Positions 12,573 to 40,505 are shown, counted from the stretch's first letter. The stretch: 50,587 bases of DNA from Eubacteriales bacterium (GCA_045594545.1 JAZNYQ010000073.1:1-50587), one strand, 5' to 3'. Notes: generated by a model from the sequence alone, not told the origin. A program made the numbers and translations.

Positions 12573-13490
12573 CGGACCGGCCAATTCTTTCAGATAGAAG
12601 AGTTTGCCGGGGAGGGTGGGCATATAAGTAGAGGTAATATTCATATCGGGACCGTAGTGAAGCGTAGTCAGGAAGCTCATACCCTGCCAGCCCATGCCGC
12701 GACCCAATGAACCGTCGGCACCGCCAATAATATAGTCAGCCTGCAGGAACAGACCGGGGCCCACCGTATTGGCACGGCAAGGAACCAGCGTGGTTCTGCT
12801 CTTAAAACTGGTAATGGCATTCTGCTCAATGGTGAGCGGATGCAACTGAGCGGCAATGCGGTAATTCTGCGCTTTCCATTCGGCTTCCGAAGCAAATTCG
12901 GCGGCAAAATGAGGCTCCCAGAACGCGATATGACACATTCTGCCGATCCCGAATACCAGCACGAGTTTTGCGCCTTCTGCTTTCAGTGCGGCGATCTTTT
13001 CCGGATAGGTAGGCAGGTTGTCCTTTGTTGCAAAATTTCTCTGATTGGCAGGGACAGTCAGCTCACCGAGTTTATCAAAGAAAGCCTGTTTCATGCTATA
13101 TTCAAAAGAAGCGGGATTATCGGATGAGAGGGTATTGCCCTGTGCATCCGACCACTCGTCCATATTGAAGGTATAGACATGCTTGCAATCGACCTGCCAC
13201 TGGGTCAGAAAATAGACGGCCCACTTATACATACCCATCGGACCTACGGGCAGGATCATGGCCAGTTTCCGGCCGTCATCTTTTGCTTTTTTGATCTGGA
13301 GCGCAATTTCGTGACCCATATAGGTATCAAAATCGTTGATATTTTCGCAGGCCACGGGGGTGAAATCCTTATGCCAAAATTCTTCTCTTGCGACGCCTTT
13401 TTCGCAACACTCGTCAATTTTCTTCATGTCCCAACCTGCGGGGTAGAAATTCTCAAGCAGGGAACCCTGTACGGTAGATAAAAAATCCAT
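12552..13490 (-). CDS. Divergent glucosamine-6-phosphate isomerase/deaminase (NagB-like)
   Basis: FNMDEW and [13 protein letters not shown] resemble NagB motifs; start MDFLS behind AAGGAGTG. Confidence 0.8.
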
Positions 13491-37711: not shown

Positions 37712-38065
37712 TCACTTTCCCGAACTTTTGAAGATCAAAGCAAATAAATAACCAAACACGATGACCGTAGTAATGCCGGCGGCCGCCGCCGTCAGCCCGC
37801 CCGTGATCACACCCATGATTCCGTGGGCATCCACCGCTTCTTTAACCCCGTTGGCCAGCACATATCCAAATCCCGTCAGCGGCACCGTCGCCCCCGCTCC
37901 GCCGAAAGCAACTACCTTATCATATATGCCGACGGCCGTTAATCCAACCCCCGCCACAACATAAGAAACTAAGATTCGAGCGGGAGTCAGTTTGGTAAAA
38001 TCAATCAATAATTGGGCAATCACACACAAAACGCCGCCCGTCAAAAAAGCACGTAAAAACTCCAT
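37712..38065 (-). CDS. spoVAE: Stage V sporulation protein AE (SpoVAEb)
   Basis: AFLTGGVLCVIAQ, TPARILV, GAGATVPLTGFG. Confidence 0.95.
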   Translation of the reverse strand: MEFLRAFLTGGVLCVIAQLLIDFTKLTPARILVSYVVAGVGLTAVGIYDKVVAFGGAGATVPLTGFGYVLANGVKEAVDAHGIMGVITGGLTAAAAGITTVIVFGYLFALIFKSSGK

Positions 38066-38066
38066 T

Positions 38067-39083
38067 TTATTCTCCCCTCACCATTTCCAGCAGATGACAG
38101 ATCCCGGGAATACTCTCCCCCTGTTGCGAACTGGTCGTGCTCATCAGCGCACCTGTAGCACAAAACAACATGCGCTTGTAAATCCCTTTCTGCATCTGAG
38201 GCAGAAGATGCCCGCATAATACCGAAGCACTGCACCCGCACCCCGATCCGCCGGCATGCACATCCTGCCGCTCCCGATCGTAAATCAGCAATCCGCAATC
38301 GGTATAATGATCCCCCATATTATAGCCGTTACGCCCCATCAGATCCACCAGAATATCATAGCCGACCTTACCCAAGTCACCCGTCACGATCAAATCATAA
38401 TCCTGCGGTGTTGTCTTGGTATCCTCAAAAAAATGCTGCAAAGTATCAGCTGCCGCAGGGGCCATGGCGGCACCCATATTGTTAGCATCCTTGATCCCTA
38501 AATCAACAATGCGCCCCGCCGTCAGTTTGGTGATCTGCGCCGCCCCGATTTTAGGCTCAGTCCCTAAAATAGCACAGCCCGCCGCCGTAGCCGTCCATTG
38601 CGCCGACGGCGTGCGCTGACCGCCGTACTCCAACGGGTTGCGAAATTGGCGCTCGGCCGTCGCAAAATGAGACGAGGTGACCGCCGCCACATGCGAGGCA
38701 AAACCGCCCGACACCAGAAAAGAACCCAGCATCAAGGACTCCGCCATGGTCGAGCAAGCCCCGTATAAACCAAAGAAGGCGCGCCCGCTCTCCCGCAAGC
38801 CGAAACTGCTGCTGATGCATTGATTGAGCAGATCGCCCGCCAAAATATAGTCGATATCATTGGCCGCCAGATTGGCCTTGTTGAGGGCGCACAGATACAC
38901 CTCTCTTTGCATCTTGCTTTCGGCCTTTTCCCAGCTTTCCTCGCCGAATCGGTCGTCTTCCAATACTATATCAAACCAGCCGCCCAGCGGCCCGTCTTCC
39001 TCCTTTACCCCGCCGATGGCGGCCGAGGTTTCTACGGTCACCGGATTAGAAAGAGTAACCGTCCAACCGTTGCGTTTTGGCAT
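38067..39083 (-). CDS. spoVAD: Stage V sporulation protein AD
   Basis: GDLLNQC, GACST, ERQFRNPLEYGGQR, GGSGCGCSA. Confidence 0.97.
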   Translation of the reverse strand: MPKRNGWTVTLSNPVTVETSAAIGGVKEEDGPLGGWFDIVLEDDRFGEESWEKAESKMQREVYLCALNKANLAANDIDYILAGDLLNQCISSSFGLRESGRAFFGLYGACSTMAESLMLGSFLVSGGFASHVAAVTSSHFATAERQFRNPLEYGGQRTPSAQWTATAAGCAILGTEPKIGAAQITKLTAGRIVDLGIKDANNMGAAMAPAAADTLQHFFEDTKTTPQDYDLIVTGDLGKVGYDILVDLMGRNGYNMGDHYTDCGLLIYDRERQDVHAGGSGCGCSASVLCGHLLPQMQKGIYKRMLFCATGALMSTTSSQQGESIPGICHLLEMVRGE

Positions 39084-39117: not shown

Positions 39118-39146
39118 TATTATGTGTTTTTTGCTTCAAATTATGC
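39118..39146 (-). promoter_or_regulatory. sigma-G-type promoter of spoVAD
   Basis: GCATA-17 nt-CATAATA. Confidence 0.75.
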
Positions 39147-39167: not shown

Positions 39168-39196
39168 GAAAAACCCGCCGAAAACCGACGGGTTTT
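39168..39196 (-). terminator. Terminator after the displaced spoVAC 3' end
   Basis: CCCGTCG-GTTTT-CGGCGGG-TTTTT on the minus strand. Confidence 0.7.
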
Positions 39197-39199
39197 GCC

Positions 39200-39319
39200 C
39201 TAAAAAACCTGAAAAAGAAAATAAATCAGTCCATAAATGACGCTTGCGACTATGCCGTAGACGATGACCGGACCGGCGATGACAAACATCTTGGCCGCCA
39301 CGCCAAGAACCAGCCCTTC
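39200..39319 (-). pseudogene. spoVAC: Duplicated 3' end of spoVAC (EGLVLG...YGLIYFLFQVF*)
   Basis: 39220-39319 is 96/100 identical to 40088-40187; in frame to a TAG at 39200. Confidence 0.9.
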
Positions 39320-39345
39320 TGCTGCTGTCAACATAGGACACAGTA

Positions 39346-39374
39346 TTTACATTCGATCTTTCATGTTGTATAAT
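39346..39374 (+). promoter_or_regulatory. sigma-A promoter of the inserted hydrolase gene
   Basis: TTTACA-17 nt-TATAAT. Confidence 0.7.
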
Positions 39375-39405
39375 TAATGTAAATCTAATTGCGGAGGCTA
39401 ATGCT

Positions 39406-40035
39406 ATGAAAGTAATAAATCATTCCGATCCGGATGCCGGTTTTCCCTATATCGCCTATATGCCCGAGAACATAAGCGAACATCCTGCGTTAATCGTTCA
39501 ACTGCACGGCGCCGGTGAACGTGGAAGTGGTAATGCTGATTTGGACAAGGTTTTAATACACGGCTTTTCACATATTGTAAACGATGACAATCTTAAAGAC
39601 TGCATCCTCATAATGCCACAATGTCCGCAAGATTCTTTTTGGGTAGCAAAGATAGAACGCCTAAAATCCTTTGTTGAGAATATTGTAAATATCTATTCTG
39701 TCAATATAGATAGAATTTATCTTTGCGGTTTAAGTATGGGTGGTTTTGGAACTTGGTATACTGCGATGGCGTATCCCGAATTATTCGCAGCGATTGCACC
39801 TTGTTGCGGCGGCGGAATGGCATGGAACGCAGGTGTACTAAAAATGCCGATCTGGACTTTTCACGGAAAAGAGGATACAGTAGTATCCCCTAACCAGACA
39901 CTCGAAATGATTGAGAAATTGAAAGACATTAATCCAAATTTCAAATACACATTATATGATGGTGTAGGACACGATTCTTGGACAAAAGCATTTTCCGAAG
40001 AATTACTCGAGTGGCTTTTAGTCCAACATAAATAA
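39406..40035 (+). CDS. Alpha/beta-hydrolase (predicted peptidase/esterase/phospholipase)
   Basis: LHGAGERG, GLSMGG nucleophile elbow, FHGKED, GVGHDSW; AT-rich relative to flanks. Confidence 0.9.
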   Translation: MKVINHSDPDAGFPYIAYMPENISEHPALIVQLHGAGERGSGNADLDKVLIHGFSHIVNDDNLKDCILIMPQCPQDSFWVAKIERLKSFVENIVNIYSVNIDRIYLCGLSMGGFGTWYTAMAYPELFAAIAPCCGGGMAWNAGVLKMPIWTFHGKEDTVVSPNQTLEMIEKLKDINPNFKYTLYDGVGHDSWTKAFSEELLEWLLVQHK

Positions 40036-40037
40036 CG

Positions 40038-40067
40038 GAAAAGGCTTGCAAAATGCAAGCCTTTTTG
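40038..40067. terminator. Bidirectional terminator between the hydrolase and spoVAC
   Basis: AAAAGGCTTGCA/TGCAAGCCTTTT inverted repeat. Confidence 0.85.
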
Positions 40068-40505
40068 TCATAACATTTGCATTATCCAATAAATCAGGCC
40101 ATAAATGACGCTTGCGACTATGCCGTAGACGATGACCGGACCGGCGATCACGAACATCTTGGCCGCCACACCAAGAACCAGCCCTTCCGTCTTAAACTCC
40201 ATGGCCGGCGAGACCACCGAGTTGGCAAAGCCGCTGATGGGCACCACACTGCCGGCACCCGCGTATTTGGCCAACTTGTCATACAACCCCAAGCCGGTAA
40301 ACAAAGCACCTAAAAAGACAATGGTGCAGGATGCGATAGTGTAGCCCATTTTCTGTTCAAAGCCTTGCGCGATAATGAAGTTGGTAATCAACTGCCCGAT
40401 CACGCAAATGCCGCCGCCCACCAGAAAGGCCAGGATGCAATTTTTCCAGGTCGGCGAGGACGGTGTTTTGCTTTTTGCCAGTTTATCGTAACTTTTTCGA
40501 TCCAT
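40068..40505 (-). CDS. spoVAC: Stage V sporulation protein AC
   Basis: AFLVGGGICVIGQ, GAGSVVPISGFANS, KMFVIAGPVIVYG. Confidence 0.97.
   Translation of the reverse strand: MDRKSYDKLAKSKTPSSPTWKNCILAFLVGGGICVIGQLITNFIIAQGFEQKMGYTIASCTIVFLGALFTGLGLYDKLAKYAGAGSVVPISGFANSVVSPAMEFKTEGLVLGVAAKMFVIAGPVIVYGIVASVIYGLIYWIMQML

Follow-up and report, generated by a model that had tools for sequence, protein, structure and literature searches.

Integron cassettes are served in trans by the integron integrase, which acts on their attC sites, and these cassettes are promoterless and read from a common promoter. To our knowledge, integrons are seldom found in Firmicutes, and single-gene trade among uncultured gut Clostridia is poorly understood; the literature searched held nothing relevant on integron-like cassettes in Firmicutes. 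Several other systems, as described in the available parts of the papers cited here, bear on the locus presented below. The e14 element and phage 21 are found at the 3′ end of the icd gene of Escherichia coli, where a replacement end is supplied and the old end persists as the C-terminal pseudogene icdC (PMC13626634). Differences between icd and icdC are largely synonymous, and excision recombines the gene and the orphan into a chimeric allele (PMC13626634). A cis-mobilizable element, or CIME, retains attL and attR but lacks genes for integration and transfer (PMC6323972). Tycheposon islands of Prochlorococcus result from repeated integration at one site, whereby older elements are pushed inward, partial target copies remain and the cargo is niche-adaptive (10.1101/2020.12.28.424599). 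Minimal mobile elements of Neisseria are variable genes at one site that rely on homologous recombination in conserved flanks and have no mobility gene (PMC3787668). As an insertion target, the spoVAC gene was not found described in the literature searched (supplements apart), and the available part of PMC6907783 mentions spoVAC as cargo only.

The window, that is, the whole stretch of DNA analysed, is an entire contig of 50.6 kb and belongs to a 1.73-Mb genome in 128 contigs that is rated 98% complete. It contains spoVAC, an indispensable sporulation gene that encodes the spore dipicolinate-channel protein. The intact gene (40068–40505, minus strand) specifies 145 amino acids, matches PF03862 (E 6e-41) and scores 181.2 bits against the curated cut-off of 164 in the TIGR02838 (spore_V_AC) equivalog test for SpoVAC. 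It consists of the gene body, the upstream copy of a 100-nt repeat (40088–40187, minus strand) that forms the last transmembrane stretch of SpoVAC, and a cassette-borne replacement tail with stop codon, WIMQML-stop (40068–40087, minus strand), which is missing from relatives with an empty site. The downstream or orphan copy of the repeat (39220–39319, minus strand) continues into the native tail FLFQVF-stop (39200–39219, minus strand), and the whole orphan spans 39200–39319.

A search of 5.5 kb detected these two copies as the single 100-nt direct-repeat family, with 96% identity and a spacing of 868 nt. The runners-up in the same 5.5 kb are merely 21–25 nt long at 71–77% identity, and the 100-nt repeat is therefore far beyond chance. 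Both copies encode the identical 33 residues EGLVLGVAAKMFVIAGPVIVYGIVASVIYGLIY, so that the four mismatches between them (GGT/GGC, TTC/TTT, GTG/GTC and GGC/GGA) are all synonymous. Homology of the two copies begins exactly at the GAA GGG codons. The original prediction for this DNA, of 100-bp direct repeats 868 apart with four synonymous mismatches and a sharp start of homology at GAA GGG, is in agreement with the repeat search, the translations and the alignment of the copies. A diversity-generating retroelement was considered and rejected: on the plus strand the mismatches are T/G, G/C, A/G and G/A rather than adenine-specific, all of them are synonymous, and there is no reverse transcriptase in the seven surrounding genes.

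The sequence between the copies begins, next to the replacement tail, with a hairpin of 12-bp stem (40039–40065) that was found by hairpin scan and DNA fold (−13.3 kcal/mol, z −5.6). It lies between the convergent spoVAC and cargo genes and marks the left end of the cassette-specific DNA. The cargo (39406–40035, plus strand) is antisense to spoVAC and encodes a 209-amino-acid putative protein with Pfam matches to Abhydrolase_2 (38.6 bits, cut-off 23), DLH (31.9 bits, cut-off 21) and Peptidase_S9; the nucleophile elbow G-x-S-x-G is read by eye as GLSMG in the translation. By family and elbow, it is a predicted alpha/beta-hydrolase of the esterase/dienelactone hydrolase type. Its relatives number 3498, and some are named dienelactone hydrolase family protein. 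The GC content of the cargo is 0.34–0.46 versus 0.53–0.63 in the flanking genes. Facing the cargo is a promoter match, TTTACA-17-TATAAT (39346–39374, plus strand), that agrees with the consensus at 11 of 12 positions. A single AT-rich hydrolase gene with its own promoter had been proposed from the sequence, and Pfam, the GC values and the promoter match all bear this out. Between the promoter and the orphan is a conserved motif (39320–39344, minus strand) that reads ACTGTGTCCTATGTTGACAGCAGCA on the sense strand, is followed by GAAGGG and abuts the orphan; it is seen across genomes and has a single occurrence in its own genome. Beyond the orphan are the terminator-like hairpin of native spoVAC (39170–39196, minus strand), common to empty-site relatives, then the native downstream neighbour spoVAD (38067–39083, minus strand; PF07451, E 4e-143) and spoVAE(b) (37712–38065, minus strand; PF03862, E 3e-34). 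A search of the locus for known RNAs in Rfam gave sub-threshold matches only, all on terminator-like stretches.

Eight genomes of the genus were compared at the spoVAC–spoVAD interval; G001 and G004, with contig ends or a different arrangement, were left out of the empty-site verdict. An empty site, with spoVAC directly followed by spoVAD, is present in four members (G005, G003, G002 and G006). The G005 gene, at 94% DNA identity, ends in FLFQVF-stop and shares with the orphan the terminator and intergenic DNA that follow. That of G003 ends in WFFQVF-stop, and the DNA downstream is again the same as the orphan's. The tail and terminator of the orphan are thus those of the empty-site relatives, which makes the orphan the original end of spoVAC. 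The new tail, hairpin, esterase gene and promoter arrived together as an insert. Another member of the genus, G007, has a different cargo at the same place and in the same orientation, a 245-amino-acid SASA-family carbohydrate esterase; its intact gene ends in another new tail, WLLQIL-stop, and its orphan is of the native type. In G036, which is from another family, the spoVAC end is present three or more times with other cargos in between, beside a gene for a retron-type reverse transcriptase. Empty sites, different cargo at the same junction and a match of one tail to the closest relatives had been named in the original prediction as things to look for, and each was found. The one-off duplication that it gave as the contrary outcome is not borne out, other genomes having insertions at this junction.

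The same ∼25 nt precede the orphan in all three genomes (window, G007 and G036), ACTGTGTCCTATRTTGACAGCAGCA, then GARGG. With up to two mismatches allowed, the motif is found in 18 of 401 genomes of the order, representing nine families and 12 of 177 genera, and the reversed control gave 0; in other genomes of the class there were 0 matches in 400 at one mismatch or fewer. At least 137 stretches with the motif were detected in species-representative genomes and 29 in metagenome contigs. The species-representative matches listed are all metagenome-assembled Clostridia, many from the gut of goats, sheep, cattle, buffalo and deer, and the names of the relatives include Acutalibacteraceae, Oscillospiraceae, Faecousia, Avispirillum and Ruminococcus. 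The motif sits exactly at the junction, always abutting GARGG, and is near-invariant in its letters in 93 of 124 orphans, in loci that were themselves fetched by the motif; a second motif type occupies the same position in other orphans. The motif region folds no better than shuffled sequences on either strand (z 0.52 and 0.74). That the motif is a copy of some other genomic site, e.g., a dimer-resolution site, was rejected, as its own genome has no second site at three or fewer mismatches. The motif lies ∼45–70 nt upstream of the cargo start and might alternatively serve as a site for a regulator.

The loci fetched were reduced to 68 non-redundant ones, in which the gene body, the C-terminal piece (core) and the motif were mapped; they were fetched with the first motif type, whose share is therefore inflated. 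The order is always body–core–(motif–core)n in the 68 loci. Of the copies, 45 belong to an intact gene; the orphans comprise 95 with the motif and 35 with other sequence, mostly the second motif type. Insertions recur at one codon of spoVAC and stack there. Counting the window, 45 loci include the gene body; one cassette is present in 21 of them, two in 14, three in six, four in three and six in one, and the arrays are uniformly oriented. The 106 segments between copies range from 337 to 6231 bp (median ∼1.0 kb) and contain one antisense open reading frame in 69 cases, one sense frame in six, several antisense frames in 10 and mixed content in 21. Just past the motif, a promoter match that faces the cargo is found in 83 of 124 orphans versus two of 124 after shuffling, and 138 of 170 copies have a stem of 8 bp or more behind the stop codon, 75 of them with identical stem letters. 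Read along spoVAC, a cassette thus has the last ∼33 codons of the gene, its own short tail and stop codon, a hairpin terminator, the cargo (usually antisense to spoVAC), a sigma-A-type promoter and the 25–28-nt motif. A few segments of 3–6 kb carry several genes, and one contains a TnpV gene.

The insert is a predicted non-autonomous gene cassette, and its family appears, in the samples searched, to be limited to one order of Clostridia. Apparently this is a large and previously undescribed cassette family of uncultured gut Clostridia. The proposal of a foreign unit without recombinase that brings a replacement 3′ end to spoVAC gains support from the empty-site relatives and from this family, and spoVAC as an att hotspot is consistent with arrays of 1–6 cassettes in the 45 body-holding loci.

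Recombinase genes were looked for in several ways. Pfam detected no tyrosine or serine recombinase family among 94 cargo representatives and no recombinase among 16 proteins that flank two arrays. A tblastn search of the 68 loci ±7 kb used 57 open reading frames, each 180 amino acids or longer, from loci with recombinase genes in five genomes of the genus; it gave one weak match alone, at the place of an HTH_3 cargo. The genome of the window has four tyrosine-recombinase matches, on contigs C48, C93, C78 and C30 and none on the window's contig. These are an XerD equivalog beside spoIIM, an adjacent Xer-like gene, an integrase beside tRNA-Ser and a fragment; XerD and its Xer-like neighbour are also present in the empty-site relatives. 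This genome has no detected serine recombinase. No integrase, phage or conjugation gene is kept in the 106 segments. The larger element suggested as a possible find at this site, one encoding a serine or tyrosine recombinase, was thus not found in cargo, flanks or the 68 loci. The loci are metagenome-assembled genomes, which are prone to miss mobile DNA, and an unlinked recombinase could escape notice in them.

The spoVAC cassettes share features with each of the described systems. As with e14 in icd, they carry a replacement end and leave an orphan native end; however, the 15-kb prophage e14 brings a site-specific recombination system of its own, whereas the spoVAC units are ∼1 kb, carry no recombinase, stand up to six deep and have a common promoter–motif block. 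Like integron arrays, they are tandem, same-oriented, mostly single-gene and diverse cassettes, often of no known function, with a repeated element between them and no internal recombinase. They differ in that no integrase is found by the spoVAC array, in the window contig, in the 68 loci ±7 kb by tblastn or in the 94 and 16 proteins by Pfam. A single-strand fold of the attC type is also not seen, since the motif region gives the z values above and the sole strong hairpin is terminator-like. In contrast to integron cassettes, spoVAC cassettes have their own promoter and terminator, their repeated element is ∼250–350 bp and includes a piece of the host gene, and insertion is inside a coding gene. 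With CIMEs they share flanking attL/attR-like direct repeats, the lack of integration and transfer genes and a tandem arrangement at a gene 3′ end, but the spoVAC units are far smaller and of uniform build, and no cognate ICE or integrase was found in the loci, viral contigs, plasmids or phages, an absence that is weak evidence where metagenome-assembled genomes are concerned. Stacking at one site with partial target copies left behind is shared with tycheposons. Those, however, insert at tRNA genes and encode tyrosine recombinases, whereas the spoVAC cassettes occupy a gene for a sporulation protein and show no recombinase. The minimal mobile elements of Neisseria resemble the spoVAC cassettes in that genes vary at one site and are exchanged with no mobility gene present, but they have no duplicated target, promoter–motif module or arrays. 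Judged by sequence features, the spoVAC cassettes belong to none of these systems; the defining integrase, attC fold and parent element were sought and not found.

The positions of past crossovers can be read in part from the copies. In G007 the first ∼45 nt of the intact copy match G003 and the remainder differs, and the orphan displays the reverse, as read by eye from the alignment. This is the pattern that one reciprocal crossover near nt 43–47, between the host gene and a circle with a related core, would leave. The differences in the window, at nt 18, 36, 39 and 90, would allow a crossover anywhere from nt 39 to 90 and do not fix its position. One reverse transcriptase cassette is found in two hosts, fused to the gene body in L094 and second in the array in L145, and near-identity of the two starts at ∼nt 75 of the upstream core. 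In L125 all copies are near-identical for ∼90 nt and then have different tails. As the breakpoints of G007, L094/L145 and L125 differ, the crossover position varies. In two locus pairs (L117/L093 and L139/L135) the cargo is 99% identical and the host cores are just 72–80% alike; in both, the identical stretch extends from the hairpin across the cargo, promoter and motif and ends 2–7 nt after GAGGG. Other cassette pairs break inside the tail, hairpin or promoter. With 99% identical cargo in diverged hosts, cargo therefore moves with the conserved blocks while cores stay host-like. Between different families, core identity has a median of ∼69%.

An open frame of normal length is found in 117 of 125 orphans. 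Comparison of the intact copy with an orphan of the same locus, over 82 pairs, gives a synonymous divergence of 0.59, a non-synonymous divergence of 0.07 and hence a pN/pS of 0.12, a rough count with synonymous sites near saturation; by this measure the orphans resemble coding sequence under selection. Nucleotide identity of 104 adjacent copy pairs is 0.95 or more in 10, 0.90–0.95 in 14, 0.80–0.90 in 23, 0.70–0.80 in 30 and below 0.70 in 27. Target-site duplication, with both cores copied from the host, was rejected as a general rule: adjacent copies are from <60% to 100% identical, at the synonymous divergence given above. From the pN/pS and the spread of identities, neither plain target duplication, which would give identical copies, nor dead fragments, which would accumulate replacements, fits the divergence of the copies. 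The copies fit ends that would each be functional in some host, and the idea that both ends in the window came from functional alleles is in keeping with this pN/pS; they also fit upkeep by repeated recombination with the live gene.

The reading put forward here, to which a probability of about 0.5 is given, is a Campbell-type insertion by way of spoVAC homology, with the crossover made by homologous recombination of the host. The cassette would enter as a circle or as a fragment that spans the join point, and a single crossover would take place within the ∼100 nt of spoVAC homology. The gene would stay whole with the cassette's distal end, and the previous end would be pushed downstream as a motif-fused orphan. 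Repeated rounds of insertion would build arrays, and recombination between copies would delete, shuffle or homogenize cassettes and change the SpoVAC tail; between the window repeats it would release a circle and swap the tail. The shared spoVAC piece, the motif–promoter block and the tail–hairpin block would be the handles for recombination, and the process may be active at present. A broader proposal, tentative and somewhat short of an even chance, is an integron-like gene-capture platform without integrase, in which host recombination alone would insert, stack, swap and delete cassettes, each event rewriting the C-terminus of SpoVAC.

Homologous recombination assigns the motif no obvious role, and a motif placed exactly at the junction is what a recombinase site would look like. 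An unlinked dedicated recombinase, encoded on the chromosome, a plasmid or a phage, might thus perform the crossover at the motif plus GARGG, with the same cassettes and Campbell topology and with the mosaic cores due to later gene conversion; this is possible rather than probable. Conservation of the motif over nine families, always abutting GARGG and with a second variant in the same position, is as expected for such a site, as are the uniform orientation of arrays and the end of host-to-host identity 2–7 nt past GAGGG in the two 99% pairs, a sharp end that a fixed crossover and subsequent gene conversion could also produce. Cores of ∼69% identity are, moreover, a poor substrate for homologous recombination, which leaves the seeding of a new lineage unexplained by it, and spread across families occurs despite this low identity. 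Yet the cargo and the 68 loci ±7 kb have no recombinase, and the 98%-complete genome of the window has just the Xer-type genes that it shares with empty-site relatives and the tRNA-Ser-linked integrase. Nor does the motif have a match in 2.9 million viral contigs, or a 206-nt module a match in plasmid and phage collections. The motif region has no stable fold (z 0.5–0.7), the body side of the junction matches the motif at only ∼5 of 18 bases by hand count, and crossover positions differ between events.

Two further explanations fare less well than host homologous recombination between spoVAC ends. It is unlikely that the arrays are now-inert remnants of larger integrase-bearing elements, prophage- or ICE-like and of the CIME type, that were serially integrated. 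Some last copies are indeed truncated or disrupted, the few multi-gene segments of 3–6 kb, one with TnpV, could be such remains, and e14 in icd is an earlier case of a replacement 3′ end brought by a prophage (PMC13626634). But 0 of 106 segments keep an integrase, phage or conjugation gene, and both ends of the small cassettes are exact and uniform, with the promoter in 83 of 124 and the hairpin in 138 of 170, which is not expected of random decay. Near-identical cassettes also occur in hosts whose spoVAC differs by 20–28%, and in four metagenomes loose contig ends display the same core joined to other tails, the common hairpin and the second motif type. An assembly artefact, by which the spoVAC ends of two strains were joined in a metagenome contig, or a one-off local duplication, is highly improbable. 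The genome is a 128-contig assembly, and public contigs break inside the repeat, no record spanning one whole repeat copy. However, the unique junctions of the window cassette (cargo–terminator–new tail–core, motif–promoter–cargo start and spoVAD–native tail–core) are all crossed by contigs with at least 90% likeness from four public runs of four studies; one of the runs is possibly the source sample. The same architecture is found in 45 independent loci with the gene body, and strain mixing cannot create a motif, promoter and cargo. Summed depth in the four runs is 41–249 over the motif versus ∼2–12 beside it, which reflects many cassettes in those gut samples. The 868-nt-skipping joint of an excised allele was not seen in the four runs, whose contigs all break in the repeat, and none of 28 loci from the 29 motif-bearing metagenome stretches has the overlapping ends of a free circle.

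In the loci sampled, this one site holds more than 100 different cargo families, each with a ready-made promoter, and since the site can be found by one short motif it offers a handle for mining accessory genes from metagenomes. The spoVAC end offers genetic tools for gut anaerobes that form spores an insertion site that is already tolerated in nature, where SpoVAC routinely has its last helix and tail replaced. Whether a dedicated recombinase is needed to run a cassette system can also be tested at this locus.

The cargo open reading frames number 164 and fall into 102 clusters; 38 of 94 representatives have no Pfam family at E ≤ 1e-5. Those with a family include the regulators MerR, AraC and HTH_3, the enzymes GH43, SGNH and HAD hydrolases and polysaccharide deacetylase, and a pyruvate-formate-lyase-like enzyme with its activase, as well as a retron-type reverse transcriptase, Fic, peptidases and YitT membrane proteins. 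That the esterase family of the window is typically cassette-borne was rejected: 0 of 17 homologues with 51–73% identity in other genomes of the order are beside the motif or core within 1.5 kb on each side. The esterase homologues sit in ordinary places, and cassettes therefore recruit ordinary genes. One cargo displays a weak match to IS200-like Y1.

The conserved 25-nt motif that abuts the orphan copies of the spoVAC 3′ end is abundant in four sets of gut sequence data. In public sequencing runs X1, X2, X3 and X5, the summed depth of contigs over the motif is 41–249, as against about 2–12 at its flanks (window 39288–39348), which indicates that the motif is common to many sequences of these four gut metagenomes. 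In one genome, G004, the spoVAC region is either arranged differently or holds a larger insertion. Its spoVAC and spoVAD genes are on separate contigs (loci L288 and L289), spoVAC is followed at its 3′ side by other genes over at least 3.4 kb, and neither an orphan copy nor the motif is found in that stretch.

The cargo of the spoVAC arrays is varied. Retron-type reverse transcriptases (RVT_1) are either carried by cassettes or adjoin an array (locus L016, 525–1436; locus L145, 5793–6812), and the cargo of another locus, L115, is a Fic/HTH pair; some cassette cargo may have a role in anti-phage defence. A protein of 410–416 amino acids, with a MerR-type HTH at the N-terminus and predicted membrane segments, is found in five arrays (L163, 1622–2872; also L138, L096, L091 and L118). 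Contrary to most cargo, its gene has the same sense as spoVAC, and it has a promoter-like sequence of its own. The largest "cassette", of about 6 kb (L147, L120), is a metabolic island encoding a pyruvate-formate-lyase-like glycyl radical enzyme with its activase, as well as an Fe-alcohol dehydrogenase and an AraC regulator, and is bounded by a spoVAC end on one side and a motif-bearing orphan on the other.

Upstream of spoVAD, a by-eye reading finds GCATA-17 nt-CATAATA (window 39118–39146, minus strand), a candidate promoter that, by its consensus, looks to be of the forespore (sigma-G/F) type. With such a promoter, spoVAD would be independent of read-through from spoVAC, and cassette insertion therefore need not be polar.

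Tyrosine recombinases are also present in the genome of the window. An XerD equivalog adjoins spoIIM (contigs C48 and C93; L225, 466–3085, in genome G002) and is followed, in convergent orientation, by a second Xer-like tyrosine recombinase that scores below the XerC cut-off. Both genes are conserved together in the four genomes of the genus for which this neighbourhood is assembled, whether within a single contig or at contig ends. A 395-amino-acid tyrosine integrase immediately adjoins tRNA-Ser(CGA) (contig C78; L234, 1322–2640); the locus is the end of an ordinary tRNA-linked island or prophage, with no relation to the spoVAC site.

In three genomes (G165, G101 and G261), an orphan core is itself split by a GC-rich insert of ∼115 nt, at the same codon, after AAKMF (L077, about 12620–12745; also L082 and L084). 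The adjoining cargo in L077 gives a weak match to an IS200-like Y1 transposase and contains repeated GC-rich palindromes. Insert and cargo together resemble a small element of the REP or MITE type, accompanied by a RAYT-like gene.
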